Positions 35,275 through 64,000 of a DNA stretch of 64,000 nucleotides are shown here, in pieces; within the stretch, counting starts at the first letter, position 1, and the number at the start of each line of letters is the position of its first letter. The stretch is from contig LVLI01000066.1 of assembly GCA_001687465.1 (NCBI GenBank), positions 1 through 64,000 on the forward strand. Reading direction: 5' to 3'. The notes under the pieces were generated by a model. The model did no database searches. It was not told the DNA's origin and saw nothing but the letters and a program-made list of their open reading frames with translations. Source of the DNA: Halocafeteria seosinensis (Eukaryota). A program made the position numbers and the translations under genes.

Positions 35275-36125
35275 GCTTCAATTGACGTCTCCGGATATGA
35301 GTAAGTGCGGGCATTTAACTATTACGCTTTCGACATCTGTGCAATTTGAAGGAGCGACGTATTTACAATTGCAACCAGTCCGGAATCACCGATTCCGCCT
35401 TGCAATACTTGTCAAATTTGACGTCATTGGATATTGATAGATGCTCCCGATTAGCAAGTACGGGGGCTGCCGTCCAATATATGTACCCTTGAAGTCGCTA
35501 CGCATCTGGAACTGCAACCAGTCCGGGATCACTAATTCCACCTTTTAATACTTAACTGATTCGACGTCACTGGAAACAGATGGATGCAAGCAATTAAAAA
35601 TTACTAGTGATGCCTTTCGGCACCTCTCCAACGTGGTTTTACTAAGCATGAGTAACTGCAACCAGTCAGAGATTACAGATTTTGCATTTCAACGCTTGGC
35701 AAATCTTAGATCGCTGGACATTTCTCAATGCAACCAGCGAACCATCACAGATTCTGCTTTCCGACATTTGTTTAATCTGAAGTTGCTAGCGATGCGGGAT
35801 TGCATCCAGTTGGAGATCACCGATTCTGCGTTCAAACACTTGTCAATTTTGATGTATCTGAGTATGAGTCGATGCAACCAACAAACAATTACAGCTTCTG
35901 GCTTTCGGCACTTGTCGAATTTGAGGTCACTGGAGATACGTGAATGCAATCAACGAACAATAACAGATTTCGTCTTTCTGCATTTGTCTAAGTTGGAACA
36001 GTTACGTATGCGATCTTGTAACCAGTCGGAGATCACGATATGCGTCGTTGCAATCAAGGAACTATAACAGATTCTGCCTTTCAACACTTGTAAAATCTGA
36101 TGGAACTACTTATTGTGGGTTGTGA
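35275..36125 (+). pseudogene. LRR-family pseudogene fragment (24-aa CNQxxITDxAF repeats)
   Basis: About 11 recognisable repeats, partly in ORF 35633-36067, with stops (TAA 35546-35548, TAA 36091-36093) and frameshifts. No recognisable N-terminal cap. Confidence 0.85.
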
Positions 36126-37065
36126 TCAACTATCTACGTGTATTTCTTTTCCCGCTGGCATTTCGATATACATATCGTTGTACCAGGTTAAAGGTGCCCT
36201 CGGCTCATTCCAATAGCAGAAGTGAGAGTGGAGTTTCCTGCACGACTTGCTCTTTAACACTTGTTTCAAAGGATTATAGGTCGGCAACAAGGAAAGAAGC
36301 GACCTGTGCAACGCTAACTTAATGTACCCATATATATCCTGTGTGTGTGTGTTAGCTCCAGCAACGGGGTGCATCTGTCGGGCTAGTTACTGGAAGGCTA
36401 CCGGTATTCGCTCCTCGGTGGCGTACGCCCCGTAACAGGCGCGTATGACGAATTTCTATCTTAAATTCGCACAACGTATTTGCTAGTCTACTCTAGTACG
36501 CTGGGTATTATACCCGGCCACAAAAATTCTGTGGCTGTAGATGTGCCGGACCACTGTACAACCTTGCGCTTCAGCTGTGAGTTGTTCCTGTCATGTGAGC
36601 TGAAACGTCCCATCATTGATCATTTGCTCTCTTACACCTGATAATGTGAAAAATTACCCTTACCGCACAACTCTGATGGGTTTTTGCTATCTACTGTTCG
36701 ACGGATTCTCGTCTTGTTCCACGCTAATCTGTGCTTGCGATAGGTACGTCGCACTTCGGAGTTGGGCTTCACACCGTGAGGCGCACAGTGAGGTCAGTCA
36801 CCGATTTACGGTGCGTGTTCGGTGTTACGTGGTTCACAGTAGACGTCTATAACAGGCGTTAATAGGTCATTTGTAGTACTAAGTCGGGTTTGCCAGGTGA
36901 CTGTAACTTTCCGCAGTACGTGTATTCTTCGTCAAGTGTAAAGTTTGAGACTTCGTGAATGGTGAGCTGCAACCTGAATACTGTACTTGGCGAACAACCC
37001 TCCACATCACCGCACCGCCTCTCACTTGCTATTGGTGAGGCGATAGCAGTAGCTTTTGTGGAAGA

Positions 37066-38424
37066 ATGAATATCAAGAGTCGTCCACCTTCAGTCTTCGC
37101 GAAACTGATACAGCTTATCGTTATTTTCATTGGGAAATGGAACACCTGTGCGTCGTCGAACCTGGTGGACTTCCGATACATCAAGTGGGACATCACAGGA
37201 ATCAGAGATGAAAGCGATCATGGCGATATTTGTGGGCTCTGTGGATTGTGTGTTCAGGCAAGCAAATTTCATCTGAAAAATGGAGACTCTCATCTGTCTA
37301 TGGGGAGTTTCGAGAACCCAGGTGGTTCCCAGTCCGAGTCGTTCGACGAAGATCCTAGCAATCTTGGTGGCTCCGGCAAATGGGTGGACCACAACTTCAT
37401 GGAGAACGAAAAAGGTTCTGTAATAATATCCGATGCTGGAGCGACGTCATCCTACGTCTTTGATCGATATGAATGGTTTACGGGAGGAGACTGCGAGGTA
37501 AGAGATCCTATCTCGTGGAAGCTCTACGGAAGCAACCACAAGGAAAGTTGGATTTTGCTCGATGAGAGAACCAATAAAGATGTAACTACTGCTAGGGAAG
37601 AGTCAGTTGGTGTATTCGATGTCAAACCACCGACTCCGACGCCTTCACCCACCCGTACACCGACTTCCACACGAACGGGGACCCCAAGCCACACGCCAAG
37701 TCACACTAGAACTCCGACCTCCAGTAACACGAGATCTCCAACTTCCAGTAGAAGCAGAACCCCTACTCCAAGCAGGACGGCTACTCCAAGCAACACGCCA
37801 AGCCGTACTCCGACCCACACGAGAACACCAACTTCCAGCAGGAGTGGAACTCCCACTCCGAGTAAGACGGCAAGTCCAAGCAATACGCCAAGTCGTACCT
37901 CGAGTAGCTCGACGACCCCGACAGCCAGTAGGAGTGGAACTCCCACCCCGAGCAAGACAGCAAGTCCAAGCAATACGCCAAGTCGTACCTCGAGTAGCTC
38001 GATGACCTCGACGGCCAGCAGGAGCGGTTCACGCACTCCGAGCACGACCATCACGCCAAGTACCACCCCAAGCCAAAGCCCGAGTAACACGAGGACTCCC
38101 ACTTCCAGCGGTAGCGCAACACCGACTTTGAGCGGGACCACAACTCCAGGTAGTACGCCGAGTCCGACGCCGAGCGGAACGAGAACGCCGACTAACAGTC
38201 GGAGCAGATCACCAACGAACACAGCAACAGTTAGTCCTACATCGAGTATTACTTCAAGTGTTACCCCTACTCACTCGGCAACCGTCAGCCATACTCCAAC
38301 TGGGACTCCATCGTCCAAAGAAACGGCCACGCATACTAGCACTCCTTCGCTTACACCTACATATGCGACATTGAAACGACTTGCCAAAGAGATTTCTGCT
38401 CAAAGAGCTAAAAGGAAGTACTAA
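37066..38424 (+). CDS. Probable secreted protein: discoidin/F5-8 type C (CBM32)-like domain plus T/S/P-rich mucin-like stalk
   Basis: Hydrophobic N-terminus (FAKLIQLIVIFIG); motifs FRYIKW, NPGG, KWVD, RDPISWKLYGSN..W.LLDER; about 240 aa of TPSxTP repeats with a 90-bp duplication (37840 vs 37930). No TM or GPI signal at the end. Confidence 0.65.
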   Translation: MNIKSRPPSVFAKLIQLIVIFIGKWNTCASSNLVDFRYIKWDITGIRDESDHGDICGLCGLCVQASKFHLKNGDSHLSMGSFENPGGSQSESFDEDPSNLGGSGKWVDHNFMENEKGSVIISDAGATSSYVFDRYEWFTGGDCEVRDPISWKLYGSNHKESWILLDERTNKDVTTAREESVGVFDVKPPTPTPSPTRTPTSTRTGTPSHTPSHTRTPTSSNTRSPTSSRSRTPTPSRTATPSNTPSRTPTHTRTPTSSRSGTPTPSKTASPSNTPSRTSSSSTTPTASRSGTPTPSKTASPSNTPSRTSSSSMTSTASRSGSRTPSTTITPSTTPSQSPSNTRTPTSSGSATPTLSGTTTPGSTPSPTPSGTRTPTNSRSRSPTNTATVSPTSSITSSVTPTHSATVSHTPTGTPSSKETATHTSTPSLTPTYATLKRLAKEISAQRAKRKY

Positions 38425-38489: not shown

Positions 38490-38670
38490 GTGTGTATTAG
38501 TATTGCTCCTACCGGAAGACGTGGGTATACTGTAGGCTACAGGCTACGTTACGCCGTGTAAGCTTCACGCTGTGGCGCATCAACGTGACTGACAGTTTGA
38601 CCGTCATCAACATGGGAAGTTCCGCTGCCCCAGCGGTAGTCCGGTACTTTCCTGGCAATTCTCTTGAGGA
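38490..38670 (+). repeat. Dispersed repeat homologous to 59291-59620 (secreted-protein gene fragment)
   Basis: Shares TATTGCTCCTACCGGAAGACGTG and GTGGCGCATCAACGTGACTGACAGTTTG-CCGTCATCA with 59306-59433. Confidence 0.8.
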
Positions 38671-47049: not shown

Positions 47050-48291
47050 ATGGCGGAAGTGGTCCAAGGGGTAGCGAAAAGTGACGTCAGACGCTCCCTG
47101 CATTGGGTGTTCAAAATCGGCAATCTCGGCCGTGCGTTGCGATTTTACAATGAAGTGTTCCACATGAGGGTTCTCCGGAGCGAAGAATTCGCGGAGGGGT
47201 GTGCCGTACGTAGCCGCATAGTTTGTGTGGGGAAAATTCAGCTTACCCTTGTTCTACGCGATGTGGAAGTCTGCAGGCTACCTGTAATGGCCCGTACGCC
47301 GGGCGCTGGAGCAAGACCATGGTGGGGTACGGCCCCGAGAAGGACAATTTCGCGTTCGAGTTGACCTACAACTACGGAGTGGACCACTACGAGAAGGCGG
47401 ATGATTTCCGGTTCATCGCCATTCGTTCGGACGAAACGGAGCAAGAATTCGCCCCGTTCCGACGAGAGTACCAAATTCGGAAAGCCAAAGAACTGGGGTA
47501 CAACGTAATCGAAAATGAGGAAGGAACTTTTATTGAAGGCCCGGATCAGTATTGCTACAAACTAGTGAATACTGCCAAGAAACAGTCACCCGAGGATGAG
47601 CATCCGACTTCCACCAGTGTGCATGAGCCTTGCTTATTCGTCTCGATCTATGTGTCAGATTTGGATAAGAGTCTGAAGTTTTGGAGAGATCGTAAGTGTA
47701 TTCCTGTATGCATAGTCTTAAAAGATATGTGATATGGTTCTGAGTTGCTCTGGTACAGATCTTGGTCTGCGGCAGTTAGATGATGTTGCTGGCAAGACTC
47801 CGGCCACCAAGAAGCATGGCGAAGGTGTAATGCTTGGGTACGATAAATCGCAAACCTTATTAGAGCTTGTTCCCCTTTACGGGGAAGATGGGGAACCAGT
47901 CAGCAAAATCGAGCATGGGAGTGCTTACGGTCGTATCGCCTTTGCTACTCGAAATGGTCCTCAGCCTATTTATGACGAACTGAAGAAGCTGGATTTCGCG
48001 GGTGGTGGAGTCATGAATGATCCTATCACCCTTCAGACTCCAGGGAAAGCCGATGTAGTTGTTACCATACTACAAGACCCAGATGGTTATGAGATTTGCT
48101 ACGTCAATGAGGATGGGTTTTACGACCTCAGTGCAACAAAACCTGCGGACGATTTCATTGACTGGGATTCTCGTGCTTACTACGGCGCCGATGGCAATCC
48201 TCCTCCGAGTGTGAGGCGAAAACAAGAAATCAAAGCACGGAGAGAGAGAGAAGCTCGGGAAAAAGAAGCTGCTGAACAAGAACGTGCATAA
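47050..48291 (+). CDS. GLOD4: Glyoxalase domain-containing protein 4; exons 47050-47205, 47277-47691, 47759-48291
   Basis: RRSLHWVFKIG, EEFAEGC|ATCNGPYAGRWSKTMVGYGPE..FAFELTYNYGV, AYGRIAF, LQTPGKADV.V.ILQDPDGYEIC. Confidence 0.92.
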
Positions 48292-48429
48292 TTTGACGAA
48301 GGTGGGGCGAATACCAGTTTAAGTGAACAATACACTGTTGAATCGTTTATGTGTATCAAGGAACGCGTCGTGTCGAATTTTTTACGCGTTTATCTTCACA
48401 CTTGCGAGAGGGATGAATGGAGATTGCAC

Positions 48430-49068
48430 CTAATTTCCTTTATATTTTGTCCGTTTCTTCATTTCACTCTTCACGTTAACATGACTCTTCTGGCAACATT
48501 TACATTTCCAGCAATTGTGCATCTGTGCCAAATCAAAACCAATATGCGGTATATATGCGGTATGTGTTATGCTCACCAGCATATAGGTGGCAAAAGCACA
48601 AACTGTGCTTCGTGCCAACACTGTTCGACAGGACGAATGATTTCCTCGTCGTTGGGTTCCTTACACCGTCTCCGAAAACGTTTCCGATACTCGAAGTTTA
48701 CAATACCTCGGTCTTCCACTAAGATGCTGCAGTTGTCCCAACTGGCTCTCGCCAGCATTTTCCACAACATCCTTTCAGCAGAAAGAAATGACGTTGTTGT
48801 CTTGAGCATTTTCTAGCAATCCATTGGATGTTAGCCGCAAGCCAAGGTTTTCGTGTTTAAACATTGCTAATGTGAGACTACCGGGGCTCTCCGTAGAACG
48901 TTGGCAATCGGGTCGTCGGAGGCCCCTGGTGAATTCTAAAGGACTTCGGCCACCCAATTCATCGGCAGCATGGATAGACATCCCAATTCTTTGCGCTCCT
49001 ATGAGAACTGTCCAAAGCCATGAACCATTGTTCGCGCAATGTAGTGGTGTCATATTGTTATGGTTCAT
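48430..49068 (-). pseudogene. Degenerate fragment of the NACHT genes' N-terminal domain
   Basis: WTVLIG..SPLEF..FKHENLGLRLTSNGL and YRKRFRRRCKEPNDEEII match WTELIG..CPVEF..KRENYGLRLTSSAL and YRERLRRWCNNPSDEEIL of the NLR-like genes. Split across frames. Confidence 0.8.
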
Positions 49069-49204
49069 TTAAGACACAAGTGATGTTCATTTGATAGAAA
49101 TTACCTGTACGAATTAATGCGTAGTTAAATGCGGACGATACAACTTTAAAAACGTACTGTACTGACGCTCTTCTAACTGACAAGCATAAGGAACAAGTAA
49201 ACGT

Positions 49205-50347
49205 TCACCACTTCCCGGTTATAGCCCGCTCAAATCGGAAAGAATCATATGAAAATTGATCGCATCCAAGCATCTCTAATTTTCGCAATTGAGATAGCTC
49301 AGAAATATGTTGGACGGCATCATCTGTAATGGTGGACTGATTGCACCCTTGCATATCCAATTCGTGTAAGTGGGATAGCTGACCAATATATCGGAAAGCA
49401 AAATTACCAAACGTGGTTTGATTGCATCCTGAAAAATCCAACGTTTGCAACTGGTATAATTCCCCAATATATTCAAACGCATCATCTGTGATAGTGGATT
49501 GATGACACCTGGCCATCCTCAACTTTTTCAAATGGTATAGGCGACCAATATGCTGGAATGCATTGTCTGTAATTGTAGTTTGATTGCACCCTCCCATAAA
49601 CAGTGTTTGTAATTGGGATAGTTGAGCAATGTGTTCAAAAGCTTCATCTGTAATGGTGGATTGACAACACTCTTCCATACACAATTCTTGCAATTGTGAT
49701 AGTTCAGCAATATGTCGGAAAGCATCATCTGTAATACTGGACTGATTGCACTTTTCAAGGTTCAATTTCTGCAATCGGGATAATTGCCCGATATGCCGAA
49801 ACGCATCATCAGTAATGGTGGATTGAGTGCACCATCTCATATCCAATCTTTGCAGTTGGGTCAATTTACCAATATGCCGAAAAGCATCATCAGTAACGGT
49901 GGAGCGGTTGCATAAAGATATATCCAATATTTCAATCCTAACCCCCAGGTTATTGGCATTACCATTCTCTGGTATCGAGCTGGATGCATCCACGTTGTCG
50001 CTAGACTGATGGTGACGATGATGATCAGTCTCACCTTCCACTCTGGCTGCTTGGGAGATACTAGAGACTGTTGAGTATGAAGGCAGTGCTTTGAATAGAT
50101 TGTCTACAATAGTCTTCGCATTCACCTCAACCATATGGACTCTATTCTGGAGTTGTGGATGAACAATATGTTCAGTTAGCTCACAAGGAAGTGAAACGAG
50201 GTTATCCAGACGAGCTATCCACTTCGGTTGGATTCTTAGCATATGCTGCCCGTTTATGGTCGTTTTCGTAGGCATGACAAAGTTGATACATTCCGGAGAG
50301 TCCACTACACAAGCCGCATGAAGAGGTAAGAGTCCCGATAAAGAAGT
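49205..50347 (-). CDS. C-terminal ankyrin + LRR module (nine 27-aa repeats), in frame with the upstream NACHT ORF beyond a single TGA
   Basis: Reads TSLSGLLPLHAACVVDSPECINFVM (ankyrin core), then a cap, then LQxLxMxxCNQSTITDDAFxHIGxLSx repeats. The tracked ORF start at 50305 is GTG. Confidence 0.8.
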   Translation of the reverse strand, partial: TSLSGLLPLHAACVVDSPECINFVMPTKTTINGQHMLRIQPKWIARLDNLVSLPCELTEHIVHPQLQNRVHMVEVNAKTIVDNLFKALPSYSTVSSISQAARVEGETDHHRHHQSSDNVDASSSIPENGNANNLGVRIEILDISLCNRSTVTDDAFRHIGKLTQLQRLDMRWCTQSTITDDAFRHIGQLSRLQKLNLEKCNQSSITDDAFRHIAELSQLQELCMEECCQSTITDEAFEHIAQLSQLQTLFMGGCNQTTITDNAFQHIGRLYHLKKLRMARCHQSTITDDAFEYIGELYQLQTLDFSGCNQTTFGNFAFRYIGQLSHLHELDMQGCNQSTITDDAVQHISELSQLRKLEMLGCDQFSYDSFRFERAITGKW

Positions 50348-53300
50348 TCAAGAAACATCGTCTTCATCAGATGCTAGCTGCTTTAGGCAATTTACATTTC
50401 CGCTCAAGGCTGCTGCAAACACAACAGTCTCACCTTCGTCCGAGACTTCGCTCGCACTAGCTTCATAGTCTCTTAACAAAGATGCTACTAATTCGGCATG
50501 GCCATTCAAAGCCGCCAAAAACAATAAAGAATAATGTTCCTGTTGCGTGAACAATCGAAGGGGCTGCACATGCAGTTTGCCTACCAAGCTTTCAAGAACA
50601 TGCTGCGAGCCGTGCTTTGCAGCTAGGATTATGTGCTCTTCGCTCAATCCAACAAACTCGCGAGAAAAACTCTCCGAACAGCAGGACGCAATTGTTTCCA
50701 AGCAACGTGCTGCATTTGCTGTGACCGCATCATTGATAGTTAGGTTGGCCACGTAAGGCGTGGCAACGATTGCCTGCTTCAGTTCCGTCTCACTGAGTAA
50801 TGTTTTCACACAGCATCCACTGTCTTTTTCTAAACAAAACCGGAAGCAATGTAAAATAAACTCCTGCATATTCAATTCGTTCGCTTTACAAGTCATATCC
50901 TTCCATTGCTCTACATGGAGCAATTCGGCTAGACAGTTTCCACTGTCTTGCTCTAAACATTCTTGGAAACAGTAACTGACTAACCCTTCGAGAGAGTATC
51001 CCCTATGCTCACATAATAAACTCCTCCATTGAGTTGCACTCAACAATTCTAAGAGGCAGTTTCCGCTGTCTTTTCTTAAGCATAAGTGAGCGCAATAAGT
51101 GATGAACTCCTCAAGAGAACATCTCTCCTCTTCGCAGAGTAGACGTCTCCATTGAGTTATACTCAGTAATTCTACAAGGCACTTCCCGCCGTTTTTCTTT
51201 AAACATAGCTGAAAGCAGTGAGTAATGAACTCGTCTAGGGAATAACCCTGGTGTTCACACAGCAGGCATCTCCATTGAGTTGTGTTCAGCAGTTCAACGA
51301 AGCACTTCCCACGATCTTGCTCTAGGCATAGGTGGAAGCAGTAAGAAATGAGCCCTTCCTCAGATGCGTACCCTATGTTCCGACAAAGAAACGTTCTCCA
51401 TTTCTCTGTGCTCAACAAATGAGCGAATCCTTTGCCCTTATCTTCATCTATACACCACTGAAAGCAAATCTGAATGAACTCCGCTTCACTGGATTCCACC
51501 CGGTGACAAAGCCATTGTCTCCATTCGTCTACATTAAGCAATTCCTCAAGACACTTCGCCCTATCTACATCTATCGACAGCTGGAAGCAATGAAAGACGA
51601 AGTCGTCCATATTGCACCCCTCTCGTTGACACAACAGATTGGCCCATTGCTTTGTACTGAGTAAAGCCCCAAGACAATGCCCGCTATCACCCTCCAGGCA
51701 CATTTGGAAACAAAGGTTGACAAAATCCTCCCTGCTCAGCTGCCCATCCTGATAGAGCGGTTCTGTACATGGCGTCTGAGAAAGTAAATATTCGAAAATT
51801 GCACCTCGATCAAATCGAATGGATTCCTGGATTAACTCTGCATCTAAGTCCTCTTCGCTGCAAAGGCGTTTCACGCACTTTAGCTGGCCCGTTCGCACTG
51901 CTGCTCTCAGAGGCCCGAGAGTCAGGCATTTATCATCCCGGAGGGGCACCTTCGTTTGCTCCAGAGCGTCCACGCAGTCCATGTGCCCTAAACTGATGGC
52001 TAAAACATAAGGTGTGAGTTCCGTCTCTTCCTCAACGGACAGCTCCTGGTCCAGCCAGCATCCTATCTCGTATTCTTGTGCCGGACAGACTTCCTCGAAG
52101 ACTAACTTTATACATTGATAAGGTAGCACCTCATCGATAGCTGCATTGCACGTATACAATGGTAGTATTGTGTTTGGCCTGTTCAATGCAACAGCAGCCC
52201 ATACAGGGGAGTAACAGGTTTTTTCACCCTTCCTTGAAAACTGCAAGCTAACATCTTTTCCGCTATCGTTGAGCATATACAGGTGGTCCAAATTTTCGTC
52301 CTGCAGCGCTTGCAATAATTCTTCAAAGCAATTCAAATCGCATTTAGCGAAATTTACGCTCTCTCTTGGATCCAATGACACCCCCAGAAGCTGTGCTGTT
52401 GCTTCTCCAATATCGCCGTCACACCAAATCAAGAGGGACGACAGGGAGTAGCTGCAATTGTGTTGCCCGGCAACTTCCATGGATTGTCGCTTGATATGTG
52501 CACATGTTTCTGACGGTTTATCGAAAGCCAGTAACAACTGCAGACACGATGCACAACCATCTCGCGATGCAATGTATATAGCTGACCAGGCAAGGTCACG
52601 CATCAAATGAAAATTAGTTTCTAGGGTATTCAAAAGAGTTCGACAACAGTCAAAGCGTTTTCCTGTGACAGCTCCAGTAAGCGCAATTTGGTGCAGCGAC
52701 ACTTGGTTCACGGACCGTTCGGATTCATCTTTGCTCGTCTCTAAAATCCAGCGAATAAGACGGTAGCTACCGACTTCTCCCGCCGAGAAAAGCAGACGCT
52801 TAACTTCGGGTGTACTAGACGCGATTGCACTCAACGATAACTGTTTCAAACGGCTAGGCTCTACTTCCAATAGGACTTGAACAAACCTGATACGCCCATT
52901 CAGCTCCGTAACAAGTGAGCTGTATAAACAGATCAGAAGACGTGTGGTCTCCTCTACCGATTGCTCTTCACTGAAGGCGCTAACGAAGAACTCCAGAAAT
53001 CTGTCTCCAAAGCGTAAGCCCTCATTGATCACGTCTTCTATCTGGGAAGTACCAATAGTGTTAAATCGTCGACGAGCAAGGAAGTACTCCCAGTACGACC
53101 GGTGAATAAACTCGTAAGTTTGTTTCTCATCTCCTGTGGGAGAGACTACTTGCATTAATCCGACACCCTCGAAAAACTCACTCGCTTCGCGTATTGCTTT
53201 CAACGGTCCTCGAAAGTCTTTGCGATGATTCTCAAATGCTTGTCGTAACACCTTCAGCGGAACCTGTTTATCCGAACAGACGTCATCTCTCTCTAGGTGA

Positions 53301-56300
53301 GAAGCTACCTCCTCCAGGATCGTCAAAGCAACCTCATGGGGATCATTATCTGCACGGACTGTGTGTGACCTCCACCATTTCTCCAATAGATGGTCCACTG
53401 TTCGACTATAGATCGGAGTCACACGGACGTCTTCTGCCGTGGATTCAAAGAAGCTACCTCCGCTCTTCACATACGCAAAACAAATTCCTTCAAGAAGAGT
53501 TGGATTAGCGCTTAAAGCATTCAGTCGATCATTGAGTCGGAAAGACAATTGTAGAGTCCGACAGAGCCTCGAATAATCACTTCTATCAGAATAACATTCC
53601 AAAGCGTAGTGCTCAATGAAACTCTTGCGAGCCTCAGAAGTAAGCCCCTCCACCTCTACAAAATAGCCGATATACTTATTGACCAACGGAATCCCATTGC
53701 GATGACTTGCTGTATGACTTGAGAATCGCGATGATACGAAAACGAAGGCTTCCATCTGTCGAAGTACTGAGAAAATTCTCCCACCGGCAGCTCCAGGTTC
53801 GAATGGATTATTTCGTACTTCATCACATCCATCTAGGAGAAAAAGAACACTGGGTCGTTTGTCGCGCAAGTGTTGCACAATTCTTATGGCTTCATCCGTG
53901 GTGATATTTCGTGCGGCAACATTGTCATCGAAGGTTTCCTTAAGATTCACGAAGCTCTTGGAGAGGAGCATCCCCAAACAAGTCTCTCCGTCAGCGTCTG
54001 GGTAATGTTTTTCCACATGTACCAGATGATACAGTTGAAGATATATTACCCAACTGAAACTATCTTTCAACACGCGACCTATTTCGTTTTCCTCCGAATT
54101 CCCAAGAGACCACGACTGGGCAAAATGCTTGAAGAGTGTGGTTTTCCCAACGCCTGCTTGCCCTTCGAAGAGGATCCACTTCCTCCTGGAATTTGAGAGC
54201 GCAAATAAATCTCTCGCTTCCACCTCGCGCTTTCTTCCCGACGCTCCAGAGTGTTTGTCCCGCAGTGTCAATTTCTGATAGCACCTATTCAATTTTGGTC
54301 GCTTGGTTAGGTCCACAGCTTCATCTTCACGGTGTCGGAAAAGTCGATGGAGTCTCCAACTTCGATAAAGCATATACAAATTATCTCGCTTATACAATGG
54401 GGGCAATTTGTTCCAGTTAAATTTCACTGTCGAAGTTGTTCGCGAAAACGTAAGTAAACGATCGTGTATAATTCCCGCATGAACTCGTCTACTACACTCA
54501 ATTTGAAACTTGAACGGGACAGAAACGGTGTCGTCGGCGCTAGAGTAGAGAGAGGTTTCCGTGGGACGCAGACTGTGCTGTTCTGGGCGTCGAAGTAACT
54601 GTCCCATGGAAACTCGGTGGGCAGCGGTAGAACAGAATTTCACCGGACTGTCATCACACAATACAACAAAAATATCTAACATTGGGACAACATCCCTCCA
54701 AAATTGTTGTTCGTCTACCGACCATATTGGATTCCTGAAGAAATTGCTTTCTACAGATTCTATGACGGGGAAACTCAGCTTTCCCTCAGGAGCGAGAACT
54801 TCGCGAAGAATTTCTTCATCACTGGGATTGTTACACCACCGACGTAAGCGCTCGCGATATTCCGCCTGCTGGAAGACACGCTGGTCCTTCGAAGGAGCGG
54901 ACAGTTGGCAGTACTGCAAATTGTCGCTCAATTGTTTCATGTAGAATCGGTTTCGCAATCCAATAACAGCCTTCAAATAGAACTCAACAGTTCCACCCTC
55001 AAGACCATAGCCTTCCACTAACGCACTCGAAGTGAGCCGGAGACCGTAGTTTTCCCTTTTAAGTGTCTCTAAGTTGAGATGTCGTCGGCCGCGCAGGGCT
55101 CGCCGGCGATCAGGCTCCCCGTTTCGCTGGGCGGTAAATTCGACTGGGCAATCGTTTTCCGATTGACAGGCATGCAGAGAAATTTGAATACTCTCCTCGC
55201 CTATTAGTTCGGTCCACGGATTTACTAGTATATTTCCTGTAGAATACCATGGATTATTCGCAGGCTCATTTACTATATCACTCCAGTGCATGTCTACGGA
55301 AATAAAATCCGGGTCAATCTGAGCTTCAGCATAGTTCAGAGACAAAGACAAGGGAGGGTCTCTCAGTCTAACAGTATTTGCCGTATAAAATGGTGACGAG
55401 GCTATCTTCTTGCACCACTTGCGGAAAGTATCACGCTTTAAATTTAGGGATGCACTTGGCTCCAGCTCTTTCGGCGATATCACTTTACCCAAGCAAAACA
55501 CGCTTCGGCACCAGCCCTTCCTCTTAATCACAAACTGCTGCCGATCTTGCAGCCTTGTTTCGTGACCCACTTCATGTATTTCTGGTGGATCACCGCGGCC
55601 ATTCTCCAATGCCGAAGCGAACCAAAGTGCAAAGCGGCTTAGGTCAGCCGTTATACCCTCCTCTCTTAACCAAAGGCAAAGATGGCGGGCTTTATGCCCC
55701 CATTTACGAAAATAAGAAAAGACAGACACGTAAGAACATTCTTGTTCGGACCAGATAACTAGAAGTTGAGAATTGGCTTCAATATACTGACGCAGCAATT
55801 CTGGACGGTAATCACTGGGAGAGTGCAAAGAATTCGGGTCCGAATGAGCATACGCAGTGGAATCTAAGTCCAGTTTTCTCGCTACGCGATACGAGAAAGG
55901 GTCCTCTTTGCGAAACTGATAGGTTACACAGGTTTTCCATAACCAGCGTCCAAGAATTCCTAAGAAGCCGCTTCCTCCTATCATACCCAACACCCAGTTC
56001 GCCCAATTCGGCAAGGATGATGTTTCAATCAGATGCCTTCTATGCACTGAAGCAAATCCCTCTGGCACAGCCTTCTCCATAGGATGAGAAACAGAATGGC
56101 GTAGAAATTGCGACTGTGTCCTCCAGGAACCCGAGGACTGCTCTTCCAGTTGAGGGATATCCGGTGGTGTCGTATCCTCCGTCCCACCGGCCGCAACGGA
56201 TATGACCACCGCAACAAGCACGATAATAATTAATATCAACTCAGGTACTAATGCTTCGCTTCTCATCCTCTCTGCCGGCTTTGTTGTTATATATGCTGAC

Positions 56301-56326
56301 CGTGGGAAAACGATGGTTGTCCTCAT
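50348..56326 (-). CDS. NLR-like STAND NTPase 1: signal peptide, TM helix, unknown domain, NACHT, ankyrin-like and 41-aa repeats
   Basis: Walker A GQAGVGKT (~54163-54140), Walker B LFLLDGCDE, sensor FVSSR, EVEGL, NPTLL, WHD YEFIHRSYWEYFLA, ankyrin cores (TPYVLAISLGHMDCV, LFLAALNGHAELV). First ATG 56326, alternative 56266. Intronless. Confidence 0.88.
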   Translation of the reverse strand: MRTTIVFPRSAYITTKPAERMRSEALVPELILIIIVLVAVVISVAAGGTEDTTPPDIPQLEEQSSGSWRTQSQFLRHSVSHPMEKAVPEGFASVHRRHLIETSSLPNWANWVLGMIGGSGFLGILGRWLWKTCVTYQFRKEDPFSYRVARKLDLDSTAYAHSDPNSLHSPSDYRPELLRQYIEANSQLLVIWSEQECSYVSVFSYFRKWGHKARHLCLWLREEGITADLSRFALWFASALENGRGDPPEIHEVGHETRLQDRQQFVIKRKGWCRSVFCLGKVISPKELEPSASLNLKRDTFRKWCKKIASSPFYTANTVRLRDPPLSLSLNYAEAQIDPDFISVDMHWSDIVNEPANNPWYSTGNILVNPWTELIGEESIQISLHACQSENDCPVEFTAQRNGEPDRRRALRGRRHLNLETLKRENYGLRLTSSALVEGYGLEGGTVEFYLKAVIGLRNRFYMKQLSDNLQYCQLSAPSKDQRVFQQAEYRERLRRWCNNPSDEEILREVLAPEGKLSFPVIESVESNFFRNPIWSVDEQQFWRDVVPMLDIFVVLCDDSPVKFCSTAAHRVSMGQLLRRPEQHSLRPTETSLYSSADDTVSVPFKFQIECSRRVHAGIIHDRLLTFSRTTSTVKFNWNKLPPLYKRDNLYMLYRSWRLHRLFRHREDEAVDLTKRPKLNRCYQKLTLRDKHSGASGRKREVEARDLFALSNSRRKWILFEGQAGVGKTTLFKHFAQSWSLGNSEENEIGRVLKDSFSWVIYLQLYHLVHVEKHYPDADGETCLGMLLSKSFVNLKETFDDNVAARNITTDEAIRIVQHLRDKRPSVLFLLDGCDEVRNNPFEPGAAGGRIFSVLRQMEAFVFVSSRFSSHTASHRNGIPLVNKYIGYFVEVEGLTSEARKSFIEHYALECYSDRSDYSRLCRTLQLSFRLNDRLNALSANPTLLEGICFAYVKSGGSFFESTAEDVRVTPIYSRTVDHLLEKWWRSHTVRADNDPHEVALTILEEVASHLERDDVCSDKQVPLKVLRQAFENHRKDFRGPLKAIREASEFFEGVGLMQVVSPTGDEKQTYEFIHRSYWEYFLARRRFNTIGTSQIEDVINEGLRFGDRFLEFFVSAFSEEQSVEETTRLLICLYSSLVTELNGRIRFVQVLLEVEPSRLKQLSLSAIASSTPEVKRLLFSAGEVGSYRLIRWILETSKDESERSVNQVSLHQIALTGAVTGKRFDCCRTLLNTLETNFHLMRDLAWSAIYIASRDGCASCLQLLLAFDKPSETCAHIKRQSMEVAGQHNCSYSLSSLLIWCDGDIGEATAQLLGVSLDPRESVNFAKCDLNCFEELLQALQDENLDHLYMLNDSGKDVSLQFSRKGEKTCYSPVWAAVALNRPNTILPLYTCNAAIDEVLPYQCIKLVFEEVCPAQEYEIGCWLDQELSVEEETELTPYVLAISLGHMDCVDALEQTKVPLRDDKCLTLGPLRAAVRTGQLKCVKRLCSEEDLDAELIQESIRFDRGAIFEYLLSQTPCTEPLYQDGQLSREDFVNLCFQMCLEGDSGHCLGALLSTKQWANLLCQREGCNMDDFVFHCFQLSIDVDRAKCLEELLNVDEWRQWLCHRVESSEAEFIQICFQWCIDEDKGKGFAHLLSTEKWRTFLCRNIGYASEEGLISYCFHLCLEQDRGKCFVELLNTTQWRCLLCEHQGYSLDEFITHCFQLCLKKNGGKCLVELLSITQWRRLLCEEERCSLEEFITYCAHLCLRKDSGNCLLELLSATQWRSLLCEHRGYSLEGLVSYCFQECLEQDSGNCLAELLHVEQWKDMTCKANELNMQEFILHCFRFCLEKDSGCCVKTLLSETELKQAIVATPYVANLTINDAVTANAARCLETIASCCSESFSREFVGLSEEHIILAAKHGSQHVLESLVGKLHVQPLRLFTQQEHYSLLFLAALNGHAELVASLLRDYEASASEVSDEGETVVFAAALSGNVNCLKQLASDEDDVS
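50792..51709 (-). repeat. About 7.5 tandem 41-aa (123-bp) Cys/Trp-rich repeats inside NLR 1
   Basis: Consensus FQxCLxxDxGxCLxELLxxxQWRxLLCxxxGYSLEEFIxxC; period 123 nt (51337 vs 51214). Confidence 0.9.
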
Positions 56327-57305
56327 GATGCTCTCCCGCACGTCCGGTGAACTGGCTTGCTTGGCGATCGCGTAGGAAGCGCAAGAGATGAACGTAGGAT
56401 TTGCTTATTCTCTCCTTCGAAATGATGATGTTTCTCCTTTCTTTGGTGTCTTCGAGACACAAAGATACTTTCTCGGCTTTCTGTCTGGAAGGACACGGTC
56501 GGCTCGGCTTCGTTCACGAAGAGAGAAATATATTACCGTATAGACTGCAGTCAACAAAGAAGCAAGAACATGACGATGATCCCGATACGAGACTTTTGCT
56601 GTAATGGATGGACCAACTAGTTCTAATACATGCAGACAGACAAGCCCGCTCCCTGTGAATCACTGCGAGTCTGCGACGCGCACTGCAGTCTGCGGAATCC
56701 CAGCAGCGCCGCGACGCGGCGACGCCCCACCGCGTCTATGGGTACGTCTACATTGCGCCTCGAGGCGAAGTGCTGTAAATATGAGCCCCGTCCGGTTTTC
56801 TGTACGGACTCGCTTTGACAAATAGCGCTGCGGTTTCTCAGGAATTCCGAGTAGAAACCATTCGCACGACTGAATAGGAGAGAGCTACCGCTGGATACTT
56901 TCCTTGATCGACCCAGTTGTAGAGAAACCTCCGTACAACTGCCAACGTATCTCTTACAGTCGCTTTGAGTCAACGATGGTCGGTAACTGTTAGCATCCTA
57001 CCTACATCTGGATAGAAGGCGAATGATTGCGTTGTGGTGGCTGCTCCGATGTGGTACAGCACCCTCCACTGATATGGCGGTAACCCCCAGGCTGCGGGGC
57101 CTTGGCAACGCATAACAGTAGTCAGCGTGGTAAATACAGTGAGTCTGGTATGCATCTGGAATGCTCCATTGTTCAGAAAGACTTCGATTGTATTTGTCTC
57201 TGAAGGAATGCCGATTTCTGGGCAATCTTCACAGTGGTGCAATGCGCTTGTTGCTCTTCTATATTTCGGGCAACCCCTTAAGTACAGTTTAGAGGTCGGA
57301 ACACC

Positions 57306-58881
57306 TCAATAGTGGCATTGTCTGCTGCCTAGTTCTACGGATTTTGTGTTACCGCGGGTGACGTATGCTGTCAGGGGGTTATTCGTTGGATACGTGGTTT
57401 TTTCCTCATCCGTTTGGTTTCCGCTGACCCCACTGTCATCGTCATTGCTTGCCATTCTATTTCTGAGCACCATGGCAATTCCGATAGCAGCGGCGATTGC
57501 TAATGCCGCTGTAAGTCCGATACGACTTGACCCGATACTCTTTTCCTTATTGGATCGGTATATAGACAAAAGTCCGTAGTACTCCGTACTACTACCGCTG
57601 AACCGGTAGAATCCTGAACGGACAAGGCATACCGACCTTCACTATCAGTTTCGAAGCCTCTGCCAGAGAAGGCGGAAATCCGTGCATGTTAATGGTGGCC
57701 GATTATGTCTCAGTGCATTATTTGTAGGACGTACGTTCCCACAAACTCTTCACATCCAGCAGGAAAGTTAGATAGCACATTCCCTTTCTGACAAATACTA
57801 ACGGGACCTCCATTTTCGTCCAGGGTCTCCAGATTTATCGGAATACATCTTTCTTCAGAGCTGCTCGACACACTCCATACTTACCTGTGTTTCGTCAGAT
57901 TTACTCGGGTATGGTTCCTTTGTCTTATCATCTCTCACGGGAGACTCATCTGACATCATGATGAGCGCCGGTATCACCATTACGACTGTCGTCGTCTTGA
58001 GTAGTTCTCTGTGGGACCTCTCGGCTGGATGGGACGGAAGCATATTCTAACAGATACAGAACAGCTTAGCTTTCGGCGACACGCATTGCGAACTTACGCT
58101 CCACATCGAACGTCGTGGACGGCACCTCGGCACCGCCATTTTGGCAAGAACCTTCTTCGATTTGGACCTTCTCTTGTTTGAACTTAGAAAGATACAAGAC
58201 GTTGCGCCAGATGACGTTGCGACTTCCACGGTGTACCACGTAATACCGTTGTACGTATACGACCCTTTAAATCTGCCTACTTGTTTCACAGCGACATAGA
58301 GTATATCTTGAACCGTGTTCGAACGCTTCCGTACCAGACTTTGAATCAATTTATGGAAAGTGAATGAGTAAAGTAAAGTACATTTACCTTAGCAGTTACA
58401 TTTCAAATTGTGTCTCCTACGGTGAAATCTCAGTGCCAGATACTATATCGTAACGATCATTCAACTCTCCCGATCTAGTGTCGTATCCGACAGACAGAGA
58501 ATTTGTGTCCTAGAGGACATGCCAACGACGTGTGGCGTTGCGCAACCAAGCCTACAAGGCTGACTGAGTACCAGCGCTACCTGAATCAATTTATGGAAAG
58601 TGAATGAGCAATGTAGAGTACATTTACCTTAGCAGTTACTGTTCAAATTGTGTCTTATACGGTGCAATCTCAGTGCCATGCTATATCGTAACGATCATTC
58701 AACTCTCCCGATCTAGTGTCGTATCCGACAGACAGAGAATCTGTGACATAGAGGACATGCCAACGACCTGCGGCGTTGTGTAACCAAGCCTACCAGACTG
58801 AGCGCTACCTCGACCAGATGGTAACTCTGAACGCACTGCACTGCAAGGATGACTTTCAACTTTGCTTACGGTAAAACGCAC
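57306..58881 (-). pseudogene. Degenerate multi-exon gene for a probable type-I membrane protein between the two NLR-like genes
   Basis: C-terminal TM IGLTAALAIAAAIGIAMVL followed by RNR and a short tail. Splice donors CAG|GTAAGT (~57884) and AAG|GTAAAT (58387, 58627). Upstream frames carry stops and frameshifts. Boundaries uncertain. Confidence 0.4.
58342..58810. repeat. Tandem duplication, 240-bp period
   Basis: TGAATCAATTTATGGAAAGTGAATGAG starts at 58342 and 58582; both copies end in AGCGCTACC. Each contains a minus-strand exon plus short-intron unit. Confidence 0.95.
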
Positions 58882-59290
58882 TTCATCAGCTTACGTCGCG
58901 TGGTCGACCAGTACGAAGGGTATGCACAAGTTTTGAAGAAGTACTGTAGTTAGATGGGTGCGGAATCTGCACTGCAGATTTAAATCTCGCCCAGGCCTGC
59001 GCAACCAGCAATCATTGACATCCACTAATCACGTTAAAACATTGCCCATATACATATAGTATGCCGACAGTGAATCGTGATCTGACCGGCAACGGCCACG
59101 ACCGGCGGGGCCAAGCTCAGTGACCAGTGGTCACCAGCGGCAGCGGCGGCAGTGGTTCACACAGTTTACCACGCCGGAAGATACTGTATTGTCCGTCCGA
59201 CTGAATGTGTTGGAACTGGTACATACGTACATACATACAGCCATTCCCTACAGTCTCATCCTCATCTTGTTCTTTTACCATTACTGTACA

Positions 59291-59620
59291 CCGTCATCAT
59301 ATATATATTGCTCCTACCGGAAGACGTGTCTGCTGCAGGCTACGCTAAGCCGTGTGAGGGGTGAACCCTACCCGGAACCGGTCCAATATCACGTGGTGGC
59401 GCATCAACGTGACTGACAGTTTGGCCGTCATCAGCTTGCGGATCATCTGGTGTGTATTGGTATTGCTTCTACCGGAAGACGTGTCTGCTGCCGTGTGCGG
59501 GGTGAACCCTACCCGGAACCGGTCCAACATCTTCTGGTGGCATCGTACAAGTACAAGCTGTACAAGTACAGTATAGTTCTCGCTCGCGTGGTGTATTTCT
59601 CCAGGGAAAGCTCTCCGAAG
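59291..59620 (+). repeat. Local tandem duplication (~135-155 bp unit) of a signal-peptide-encoding fragment; third copy at 38490
   Basis: CTACCGGAAGACGTGTCTGCTGC and GGGGTGAACCCTACCCGGAACCGGTCCAA each occur twice; encodes ..YILLLPEDVSA|A..NPTRNRSNITWWRINVTDSL. Confidence 0.85.
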
Positions 59621-59818
59621 GCCACGCCAGGAGACAGTGGAACTGGGTCTCCCCCACAACACATACACTCAAGTCTTTTCATTCCACGCGAAGAAACCAA
59701 GGGGAAGGGGCCCCCATCCCGCTTCGTGGAGCCTGTATAGGCGACTGGAGCCACCAAACAAGAAGCTAAAGAATCAACATTCTCGAGAGGGAGAACAGTT
59801 ACGTTTCTAAGCATTGTA

Positions 59819-62800
59819 ATGGTCACTGATAGCACCGAGAGTCGATTAAGAATGGAGAAGAGAGTATCCTCGGTATACAAATCGATGCTGGTTTGCATCG
59901 TAGCTTTGCTTGTGGCAAGTGGTATCTCCTCAGCCATGGCCACGGCAGCAGAAGACGAGGATATCCAGGAAGAGCAGCTATTCATGAGTTCCTACTCCCG
60001 ACCACCAACTTATTTTCTTCGACATTCCATTCCTCCTCGAGAGGAGAAGAAGCAACAACATGCGCCAGTGCATAGACGAAATCTGATTGAAACGTCAGCT
60101 CTGCCAACTTGGGCGAACTGGCTGCTTGGCGCCCTCGGCGGAAGTGGCTCTGTCGGTTTGGTAATCTTGTGGATATGGAAATCCTGTTTAAAGTATCAGT
60201 TTCGGAAAGAAGATCCTTTCTCATATCGTGTGGCCACGGAACTGGATTTGGACTCGACCACTTATGCTCCTTCCAATCCGGATGCCCAGCGCTCTCCCAA
60301 TGAATACCGTCCAGATCTGTTAGTCCAATATCTTCGAGCCAATCTACAATTGTTGGTGATTTGGTCCAGAAAAGAGGGTTCAAGTATATCTTTGTTTGAT
60401 TATTTTCGTAAATATGGAGATGACGCGCGTCATCTTTGTCTCTGTTTCGGGAAGAAGGGCACAACGGCTGATCTAAGCCACTTCGCATCTGCGTTCGCGA
60501 CTGCATTGAAGAATGGTCAAGGTGACCCACTTGAGATGCATGAAGCAAGTACGGACACAAGGCTTCAAGGACGGCAGCAGTTTGTCCTGAAACGGAAAGG
60601 GTGCTGTCGAAGGATGTTTTGCTTGGGTAAACTCATTTCACCGGAAGAACTACAGCCGCGGGCATCTCCAACGTTGAAGCGTGACGTTTTCCTCCGATTT
60701 TGCAAACTGATAGCCACATCGCCCGATCACTCGGTAAGTACAGCTAAATTGAGGGATCCTCCTTTGTCAATATATCTAGACTGTACTGACACTGAAATGG
60801 ACCCGGATTTTATTCCTGTGGACATTGCGTGGAGGGGTATGAACGACCTCTCCAAGAATCCGTGGGAAAACATGGGAAGTCCCTTACTGATCAATCCGTG
60901 GACCGTCCTGCTAGGTGACGAAAACATTCAAATCTCTTTGTATGCCTACCATTCGGAGGAAAACTGCCCCATTGAATTTGCTACCAAGAGGAACGGGCAA
61001 CCTGATAGGCAACGTGTCACTTCCGGCCAAAGTCATCTTAACTTGGCGACATTTAAGAGAGAAAGCTGGGGTCTGCGGCTCACTTCGAGTGCACTAGTCG
61101 AGAGACATGGTATTGAGAATGGAAACATCGTCTTCCATCTGAAGGCCACAATTCAGAATCGCGAAGAATTCCAGCTTAAGCAACTAAGCGAAAATTTATC
61201 GTACTGCACACTACCGGCTCCGTCAATGGATCGACTTGTCTTCAAGCAGGCGCAATATCGTGAACGCTTTCGACGCTGGTGTAACGATTCCAGTGATGAA
61301 GCAATTCTTCAGGCAATCCACGCTCCTCGATTAAAGTTGAATATCCCTACCATCGAGTCTGTAAATAGCAATCTCTTAACGGATCCAATAGGGTGGGCAG
61401 ATAAGAATGAAAAGCTGTTCTGGACCGGTATCGTTCCATTGTCAGACATGTTTGTTCTGTTTTGTGACGATAGTCCAGTTGAATTCTGCGATGCAAGCAC
61501 CAATCGAGTTCCTATAGAGCGACTAGTTCAATGCCCGGAGGAGTACAGTTTGCGTCCTACCGAGTCCTCTTTATACACCGTCGACAGCGTATCTGCTCCG
61601 TTCAAGATTCAGCTTGAATGCAATGACCAAGTTCATTCCGAAATAAGACAACGGAAGTCATTCACGGTTGGTCAGAGCAGCGTTAACGTAATATTTGACT
61701 GGAGTAAGCTACCTCCTCTATATAAGTGGGATGAGCTTACTCTGCTCTATCGAAGTTGGAGACTTCACCGTCTCTTTGGGCAGCAGACAGATGAGGCTGC
61801 ACACCCAGTCAAGCGACCGAAATTGAATAAATGCTATCAAAAGTTGACACTACGAGACAAGTACTCTAACAAAACGTCAGGGGAAGGGATCCAGACGAAG
61901 AATTTATTTTCCCTGTCAAATCCCAACAGGAAGTGGATTCTCTTCGAAGGAGAAGCAGGAGTTGGGAAGACCACCTTATTCAAGCATTTTGCTCAGTCAT
62001 GGTCTCTCGAAGAGACCGAGGGTAATGAGATAGGTGAGGTGATGAAGGATAAGTTCACGTGGGTACTATATCTTCAAATGCATCATTTGATACATGTAGA
62101 AAATGAGTACGCGAAAGCTGATGGGGATACATGCTTGGGGATTCTTCTCTCCAAGAGCTTCATGAAGCTTAAGGAAACCTTTAGCGACGAGGTTGCTGCG
62201 TGCGATATTACCGCGCAGCAAGCAGCGTAAACAGAGTGATATTCTTTTCCTCCTGGATGGGTGCGACGAAGTAAAAACTAATCCATTTGAACTTGGTTCA
62301 CTCGGTGGGAGAATGTTTTCCGTTCTTCGCCAAATGGGAGTGTTCGTTTTTGTATCGTCGCGATTCTCGAGTCATACGGCGAGTCGTCAGGATGGTATCC
62401 CCTTAGTTAACAGGTACTTTAGCTCTTTTGTAGTGGTGGAGGGACTCACACCGGAGGCTCGCAAACTTTTTGTGGAACAATATGCTCAAGAACGTTATCC
62501 AGACAGCAGAGGTAACCAACTGCATCTTTCCCAGACACTGCAGCTCTCCTTCCGGCTCAACGATCGGCTTGACTATCTCGGTGCTAATCCGACGCTCCTG
62601 GAAGCGATATGTTTTGTATATGTAGAGAGCTCAGGAAGCTTCTTTGAATCTACAAAGAAGGACATTCGCATCACGCCAATTTACGCTCGGACTGTGAAAC
62701 ATTTGGTGCACAAATGGTCGACGATATCATGCTCGTCTTCACCCGACGATGATCCCCTTGACGTGTCACTAAAAATGTTAGAGGATGTAGCCTTACGACT

Positions 62801-64000
62801 GGACGAAGATGGAGAAAATCTTCATGAGGAGAACGTTTCCACTGATAAAGACGTGTCTCTACATCGTTTGCAAAAGATCTTTGCAAAGTATCGCGAGGAA
62901 TTTCGGGGACCACTAAAGTCTGTAGAGCGGGTGACCGAGTTTTTCGAGCGTGTTGGTCTGTTGAGGATTGTGTGCCGCACGGGTGACGCAGATCAAACCT
63001 ATGAATTCATTCATCGTTCTTACTGGGAATATTTTGTGGCTCTAGGGGAATTTAGAAAGAGTAAGTCTCGCCCCGCCAGATACCTTATTCAATCTGAGTC
63101 TCGACTTTGGGATCGGGTTTTCGACTTCTACGTCAGCATATTTAGCGAACAGCAAAACATTAACACTATTACTGATTTGCTTCATAGCTTACATGGTTTG
63201 CTATGTGGGGAGCATGTATCCGGTTGTACACCAGATCAAGGCCCCCATCGGTTCACCGAACTTTTACTTGAAGTGCATCCAGATAAATTGGAAAAAGTAT
63301 CGCTTCACATGATAATGTCGGCTTCAGACGAAATACGATCGCTTTTGTTTTATGCAGGTGAAATAGGCAGTTTTCGTCTTGTTAGCTGGATCCTAGCTCA
63401 GACTGCTCAGCGTAACTATCAATGTGGCGAGAAGGAAACCTATAGCGAGCAAAGAGCACTTGTCCAAGTTGCACTCGCGGGATCTTCGAAAGGAGGACGA
63501 TCTGCTTGTTGCCGAAGGATACTGGATACCATGGATACTGATTTTTATCGGGTTGAGGAAACTTCGTGGTCAGCTATTTACATAGCATCGCGAGAAGCTA
63601 GTGCCCCGGGAGCTGCCGCATGTTTGCAGTTGCTACTGGCTGAAGCTAAGCTGTCCGAAACCCCGGAGTTTATTAAACAGGAATCTATGAAAATCGCAGG
63701 AGAACGGAGTCACGAACGTTGCGTCGCCCTGTTCTTAATCTGGTGTGACGGTGTTGTAGGTGAAGTCGCTGCACAAGTATTGGGTGACGCCTGGATGTCG
63801 ATGGCCCCACAAAAAAGAATAAATGCCGCAAAGAGTGAACTTAATTGTTTTGAAGAGTTAGTACAAGCGTTGCAACGGGATGATGTGGAACGACTTTACG
63901 CACTCAATGATGGCGGAAAGGATGTAAGCTTACAGTTCTCTCGAAAGGGACATGAGAATTGCTATTCTCCCGTATGGATTGCTGTGATATTAGACAGACC
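59819..64000 (+). pseudogene. NLR-like STAND NTPase 2, paralog of NLR 1, with one frameshift at ~62227; runs off the window
   Basis: ORF 59819-62230 is collinear with NLR 1 through Walker A (GEAGVGKT, 61949-61972). A second frame from 62226 (RKQSDILFLLDGCDEV..NPTLL..YEFIHRSYWEYF..CYSPVW) is stop-free to 64000 by manual translation. May be a recent pseudogene, an allele, or an assembly error. Confidence 0.85.

Follow-up and report, generated by a model that had tools for sequence, protein, structure and literature searches.

A single TGA interrupts a gene of a predicted membrane-anchored NACHT-ankyrin-LRR receptor family in Halocafeteria seosinensis

Introduction

A tripartite plan has been described for receptors of the signal transduction ATPases with numerous domains (STAND) class (Kibby et al., 10.1101/2022.07.19.500537). 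In the account of Yuen 2014, NACHT domains outside animals occur only with ankyrin (ANK), TPR or WD40 repeats, and NOD-like receptors (NLRs) bearing transmembrane (TM) segments are found in anthozoans (PMC3879445). The Dyrka 2014 survey describes fungal NLRs without leucine-rich repeats (LRRs) (PMC4986451), and Richter 2018 reports the combination of NACHT and LRR in choanoflagellates (PMC6040629). Here we describe a gene that combines a NACHT domain with both repeat types on the minus strand (56326..49205) of a 64,000-nt stretch of Halocafeteria seosinensis DNA (contig LVLI01000066.1, positions 1 to 64,000, assembly GCA_001687465.1; hereafter the window). An initial annotation had proposed that two open reading frames (ORFs) at this position form one receptor split by a TGA.

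The genome preprint for this organism gives a GC content of 46.8% and a diploid state (10.64898/2026.06.25.734631). The GC content of the window is 46.9%, and its content is eukaryotic, with a dynein heavy chain (recognized by eye), E2F and GT-AG introns. A literature search for NACHT together with bicosoecid returned no paper, no title on such a family stood among the papers listed by further searches, and a term search of PMC5447177 and 10.64898/2026.07.28.741278 found no mention of NACHT or ankyrin; the supplements of the Halocafeteria papers may list such genes.

A single TGA interrupts one long reading frame

Translation of 56326..49205 gave 2373 codons in one frame with a single internal stop, confirming that the two annotated ORFs are one frame cut by one TGA. 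The frame starts with Met1 at 56326, with an alternative Met21 at 56266. The premature TGA (50350-50348, minus strand) is codon 1993, has the context TCT TGA ACT and falls in the loop between two ankyrin repeats. All 380 codons downstream of it are open, for which base composition gives a chance of ~8e-11. There was no sign of a changed genetic code, since TAA, TAG and TGA each terminate ORFs in the window.

Four sequencing runs from two samples of one study hold the stretch (X1 to X4); the contigs built from them are unstranded, and rare forms are dropped. None of the four is recorded as RNA. The contigs of X2, X3 and X4 skip both introns of a neighbouring glyoxalase-family gene, with no cover inside them, and X1 keeps both, from which we infer that X1 is DNA and X2 to X4 are RNA. 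Among the contig matches listed, those of three of the four runs pass over the TGA without a single differing letter or gap: a 10205-nt contig of X1 (depth 60), a 5236-nt contig of X2 (depth 12), continuous from 53669 to 48434, and a 531-nt contig of X3 (depth 4.6). No listed piece of X4 bridges it. Because X2 and X3 bridge the codon unchanged, the TGA is neither edited nor spliced out in the RNA-type contigs, and the whole frame is intronless where such contigs cover it. The TGA is thus real and present in both DNA-type and RNA-type contigs. The initial annotation had proposed to compare DNA and RNA reads over 50348-50350 and had considered that no transcript might cross the codon; the RNA-type contigs of X2 and X3 do cross it, although contigs do not resolve single transcript molecules.

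The ankyrin-LRR junction in relatives and the age of the stop

A search of 4774 long candidates yielded one match, the transcript-derived EukProt record GECG01014195.1 (P0001, 1401 aa), which is unbroken from the C-terminal half of NACHT through the ankyrins and the linker into ~19 LRRs (17 by pattern). P0001 is thus a paralog in which a sense codon stands at the site and the ankyrins lead on into LRRs, the arrangement for which the initial annotation had proposed to look. The TGA aligns to Gln in P0001, or to Ala in the ungapped register, and identity to P0001 is 41% on both sides of the stop (38/93 before, 36/88 after). Two loose ends of X1, translated by hand, represent a further relative with Lys at the TGA site and a matching continuation. 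With Gln or Ala, and Lys, at this position, the previously suggested change of CGA to TGA found no support. In addition, an X1 contig of depth 184 joins linker to LRR and is also present in X2 to X4, which points to further family copies. As judged from these alignments, the join of ankyrins to LRRs is ancestral, and the reading of the two ORFs as one ancestral frame is supported.

P0001 is without both Walker motifs and begins at the first Met after the Walker B break point. The EukProt record GECG01014196.1 (P0003, 798 aa) corresponds to aa 83-829, its end lying at Walker B. Because of their adjacent record numbers and complementary cover, the two records would represent one third paralog broken at Walker B; a retained intron or an assembly fault is a possible cause of the break.

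Wider searches returned little. There were 0 matches for aa 60-860 among 7995 shorter candidates, and the junction matched 1 of 4670 candidates, a generic ankyrin protein. Pattern matches that were relatives numbered 0/458 and 0/210 in metagenome contigs and 0/73 in viral contigs, and PADLOC gave weak ankyrin and P-loop matches only. The homolog search produced 21 matches, 16 of them distant and mixed NACHT proteins (E 1e-5 to 1e-3). Among 11 of these that were scanned, six had HEAT repeats, one had ankyrins, one was a Death-NACHT-LRR protein and none had both ankyrins and LRRs.

The ratio of nonsynonymous to synonymous substitution rates (dN/dS) was 0.23-0.26 between paralog 1, the TGA-bearing gene, and its head-to-head paralog 2, and 0.24 among LRR units, which therefore indicates long purifying selection in the past; dS of the C-terminal half is saturated between the two paralogs. 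In a neutral tail, a second break would be expected (95%) within 0.024-0.066 substitutions/site, about the level by which the glyoxalase alleles differ, whose two bubbles (148 and 153 nt) contain 16 differences. No second break is present in the tail, which implies either a young stop or a tail that is still in use. We consider it probable that the TGA is an ordinary young nonsense mutation in a receptor gene. Of the three origins named in the initial annotation, a recent nonsense allele is accordingly favoured, sequencing error is rejected and readthrough is without support.

Alternative explanations for the TGA

A leaky stop, at which readthrough would add a small amount of full-length protein with LRRs to a predominant product without them, is unlikely. 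UGA is the leakiest stop codon, but its context here is UGA-ACU and not the readthrough consensus UGA-CUA, and the 150 nt that follow show no more stable folding than shuffled sequences (z +0.64; 140/200 shuffles as good), so that neither a leaky context nor a 3' structure was found. The undecayed tail, the RNA-type contigs that cross the stop and its position at a repeat boundary would all suit a leaky stop; both relatives seen at the site (2/2, P0001 and the X1 piece, paralogs and not orthologs) nevertheless have sense codons, so the stop is not conserved among them, and other family copies break at other places.

Slightly less probable still is a gene split, in which the LRR tail would be made separately from Met2018 (50275), through its own promoter or re-initiation, and act in trans. 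In-frame Met codons lie at 50275, 50242 and 50134, but the X2 contig runs continuously across the region. Stand-alone genes with the same LRR type occur in the window, yet the linker matches an internal part of P0001 and not the N-termini of those genes. The RNA-type contigs of X3 and X4 gain depth on the tail side, a point in favour of a separate transcript, but this arises from contigs fused to the 3' end of the glyoxalase gene.

Removal of the stop by a minor splice is very unlikely. The initial annotation had discounted splicing because a 52-nt GT..AG pair around the stop would shift the frame. The contigs bear out its conclusion but not the frame argument, since an in-frame 129-nt GT..AG option over the TGA exists (50433-50305; donor AAG/GTGAGA, acceptor TGTAG), one of 45 in-frame pairs of up to 330 nt around it, which would give a full-length form minus 43 aa of ankyrin. 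Its donor is good, one of 2 such in the 7.1-kb frame, and its length is divisible by 3, but the segment is conserved as coding in P0001 and none of the 11 joints listed removes the TGA, the X2 and X3 contigs passing through without a gap. The verified introns of the organism have no strict branch motif, a point in favour of such a splice, but are 67 and 71 nt long.

Hardly credible is a sequencing or assembly error, or a selenocysteine codon, which a single break in 7.1 kb of a Cys-rich protein might suggest, as the same letters occur in 3 runs and 2 samples of both DNA type and RNA type, Rfam gave no match at E<=5 in 47500-51000, none of three patterns resembling a selenocysteine insertion sequence (SECIS) folds well (0/3), and the relatives have no Cys at the TGA site. 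Both candidates can be regarded as largely refuted. Rfam likewise had no match in 56300-59900.

Predicted domain architecture

The unusual combination of signal peptide, TM segment, NACHT, ANK and LRR noted initially was upheld, the first two as predictions from Kyte-Doolittle-type (KD) hydropathy values only. All coordinates below are on the minus strand. The predicted signal peptide has its hydrophobic core at aa 26-44 (56195..56251; KD 3.09) and likely starts from Met21; a similar N-terminal stretch recurs in paralog 2 and P0003. About 65 residues further on follows a predicted TM segment at aa 112-130 (55937..55993), marginal at KD 1.24 and succeeded by basic residues. The aligned segment is clearer in paralog 2 (KD 1.73) and in P0003, where it is hydrophobic, than in the TGA-bearing copy.

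The effector position is taken by a family-specific N-terminal domain of ~555 aa (54257..55924), 57% identical in paralog 2, with a dN/dS of 0.23-0.25 and relatives in P0003, P0005 and P0006. Pfam returned no family for aa 60-700 at E<=0.05, including no Death, CARD or PYD, and a PDB profile comparison of the domain gave no match. AlphaFold2 (AF2), run on it with 2 sequences, gave no usable model (predicted local distance difference test, pLDDT, 30).

The NACHT NTPase (aa 718-907; 53606..54175) matched Pfam PF05729 with an E of 3e-12 (47 bits against a cut-off of 26.7). It contains what we take to be Walker A (GQAGVGKT, aa 722), Walker B (LLDGCDE, aa 830) and a sensor-1-like SSR (aa 865). A winged-helix motif, FIHRSYWE (aa 1073-1080; 53087..53110), weakly resembles the corresponding region of NLRC4 (E 0.006). 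The features of a NACHT STAND NTPase, namely the NACHT domain, Walker A, Walker B, sensor 1 and winged helix, were thus all found.

Next comes a degenerate ankyrin-like helical region at ~aa 1210-1530 (51737..52699; limits approximate), in which three stretches matched Ank_2 and for which Ank matches were also obtained at the aligned parts of P0001. Eight Cys-rich repeats of 41 aa (50750..51736; seven by pattern and one by eye) form a predicted alpha-solenoid, modelled by AF2 with three helices per unit at a pLDDT of ~60; they matched no Pfam family above the cut-off, and only about one copy is present in P0001. The C-terminal ankyrin repeats (50270..50644), assigned from Pfam and the P0001 alignment, cross the stop: if X is written for the stop codon, the highest-scoring Ank_2 stretch (aa 1935-2019) runs over the TGA and reaches 77 bits vs 70.7 for the 5' ORF alone. 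A linker conserved in P0001 and a 44-aa in-frame insert absent from it (49937..50269) lead to nine Cys-containing LRRs of 27 aa (49232..49936; Pfam and repeat pattern).

AF2 modelled the LRR part as a beta-alpha solenoid (pLDDT 60-89), whose best Foldseek match was FBXL2 (6o60_C, E 6e-7), NLRC4 ranking 11th. The best reading of this model is that the LRRs resemble F-box-type and not animal NLR-type repeats, a soft class call because other LRR classes score within tenfold to hundredfold of FBXL2. Around the stop, in the ankyrin-linker part, pLDDT was <50 and folding is therefore uninformative on the junction. The domain search and structure prediction suggested for the joined protein thus recovered the NACHT, ankyrins and LRRs and modelled the repeats.

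Family copies, haplotypes and genomic neighbourhood

Paralog 2 (59852..64000, plus strand) lies head-to-head with the TGA-bearing gene, is 53-57% identical to it and runs off the window. It carries a 23-nt deletion and frameshift at ~62222, just before Walker B, with 0 differences in the X1 contig; the initial annotation, which had looked to its 3' end for an LRR tail, had not noted this break in NACHT, and the window ends at 64000. Paralog 2 had no RNA-type cover, which is not used as evidence here. The terminal part of P0004 aligns to P0001 once the frame is shifted (score 47, reached by 0/200 controls). A relic of the N-terminal domain (aa 371-510) with stops and frameshifts lies just 3' of the TGA-bearing gene (48627..49014, minus strand; tblastn E 2e-12). 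Altogether, 5/5 assessable family copies are interrupted, P0005 and P0006 being left out as fragments on short contigs. Two of the breaks fall within ~14 codons before Walker B (62190-62260 in the window and the C-terminus of P0003; P ~0.08, not significant), and paralog 1 has a T-rich run near this break region.

In X1, the allele pairs of the glyoxalase gene have depths of 52/44 and 50/44 and its merged parts 76-98. A contig of depth 58 branches off at ~48300, where the 10.2-kb gene contig carries on at 60 without bubbles; the contig of paralog 2 has a depth of 55. A block free of allele bubbles and apparently at single-haplotype depth thus extends over 48298..58472, from which the second haplotype would depart at ~48298-48304. 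Because depth is near the single-allele level and bubbles are missing, there is a hint that the block is on one haplotype only, or that its partner is <80% similar; contig depth gives only a poor estimate of copy number.

The glyoxalase-family gene (47050-48291, plus strand) is strongly heterozygous and has introns of 71 and 67 nt (47206-47276, 47692-47758; GT..AG, from contig joints), and its 3' end converges on the NACHT gene. Upstream of the latter, a short frame with a hydrophobic stretch (57330-57500, minus strand), covered by low-depth X2 and X4 contigs, possibly encodes a small membrane protein. Between the head-to-head paralogs lie a tandem duplication of ~220 nt (58342-58801, 91% identical) and a high-copy repeat (59306-59540, related pieces 38490-38609), possibly similar to a short interspersed element or a miniature inverted-repeat transposable element; its summed depth in X1 is 8276 vs ~55-60 in the flanks, it is present in X2 to X4 too, and it had no Rfam match.

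Elsewhere in the window, three stand-alone genes (1521-2620, 29923-31794 and 35328-36135) carry Cys-containing LRRs of the same type in 24-aa units. Two of the three, the first and the third, are broken by frameshifts or stops, and the first and second share an N-terminal region with 64% DNA identity. A Thr/Ser/Pro-rich, mucin-like ORF (37039-38424, plus strand) had no Pfam match. The dynein heavy chain frame (14725-28131, minus strand) comprises 4468 codons and is by eye of the cytoplasmic dynein-2 type, which points to a flagellate with few introns.

Proposed function and its weighing

We propose that the gene is a member of a lineage-specific family of predicted membrane-anchored NACHT-ankyrin-LRR receptors. 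The function of an intact member is inferred from the behaviour of STAND and NLR proteins. The signal peptide and TM helix would hold it in the membrane with a short outer peptide, and the ankyrin, 41-aa and LRR repeats would hold the cytosolic NACHT inactive until they bind a signal of foreign origin or of damage. Nucleotide exchange would then oligomerize NACHT and bring the 555-aa N-terminal domains together at the membrane. Turnover of the family probably proceeds by duplication, change of repeat number and disablement, as immune receptor families do. The TGA-bearing copy would give a 1992-aa protein without LRRs, with NACHT intact and ending at an ankyrin repeat boundary. As its mRNA extends at least 1.9 kb 3' of the stop, it is likely a target of mRNA decay, or else its product may act as a NACHT-ANK remnant of the fungal style.

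That this is a convergent, membrane-anchored, NLR-like protist family with some intact member we hold to be somewhat better than an even chance. A more elaborate scenario, in which a membrane-anchored protist NLR was independently assembled from a NACHT-ankyrin protein, a new effector and F-box-type LRRs and its breaks serve as recoding switches (readthrough at the TGA, release of the effector from the NTPase by the Walker B breaks), appears improbable.

Several points weigh against the proposed reading. The runs all derive from a single study and have heterozygous sites in common, perhaps representing one strain, and for this reason no second strain and no sense allele of the TGA-bearing gene were seen. 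Some of the RNA cover might stem from transcription running on from the convergent glyoxalase gene, and the undecayed tail fits a maintained readthrough as well as a young stop. Furthermore, no uninterrupted full-length family member was found in the searches, so the hidden full-length receptor of the initial annotation is not supported as a present product; the architecture is a composite of the TGA frame, P0003 and P0001. The TM segment is marginal, and the immune role is putative.

If the proposal is correct, the family would represent a further independent assembly of the NLR plan, in a probably stramenopile flagellate. Its putative effector domain belongs to no known family, and the receptors would open a way to study cell-autonomous immunity in protists. 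Taken alone, the premature stop is probably nothing unusual. Because gene callers split the TGA-bearing gene and its relatives, the family is hidden; the breaks in its copies and its apparent restriction to one haplotype resemble the turnover of immune genes, here in a unicellular organism.

Comparison with known NLR-like systems

With animal NLRs such as NLRC4 and NLRP1 the predicted receptor shares NACHT with a winged helix and C-terminal LRRs. In the PDB comparison weak sequence matches to NLRC4 (E 0.006) and NLRP1/14 (E 0.3-0.7) ranked highest apart from ATP synthase noise. Unlike animal NLRs, it has a predicted signal peptide and TM segment, ankyrin and 41-aa repeats between NACHT and LRR, and Cys-containing LRRs with FBXL2 as the best fold, and no death fold (Death, CARD or PYD) was detected by Pfam or PDB profile. 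Ribonuclease-inhibitor-type LRRs are 28-29 aa long; the present units have 27 aa, LRR_6 is absent from the Pfam matches and FBXL2 ranks first. F-box/LRR (FBXL) proteins are similar in repeat length, conserved Cys and the FBXL2 fold match, but no F-box was found in the receptor, and its LRRs are fused behind NACHT-ANK.

Among membrane-associated forms, anthozoans and sponges have putative membrane-bound NACHT-LRR proteins, which differ in being metazoan, in having 3-4 (anthozoan) or 1-2 weak (sponge) N-terminal TM helices, and in having no C-terminal ankyrins as described (PMC3879445). By the definition in that source, NACHT and LRR in one open frame, the present stop stands between the two, and they share a frame only when it is read as X. 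The choanoflagellate NACHT+LRR proteins also come from a unicellular eukaryote and are without Death or CARD, but belong to a different lineage and have no ANK or TM in their description (PMC6040629). As in fungal NACHT-ANK proteins (PMC4986451), ankyrins follow NACHT (here by Pfam), repeat number varies and the N-terminal domain is variable. The receptor differs from these in its LRRs after the ankyrins and in an N-terminal domain without a Pfam match; the truncated product, in contrast, has the fungal NACHT-ANK layout. Judged by its predicted architecture, the receptor is NLR-like, and we do not class it as an animal NLR.

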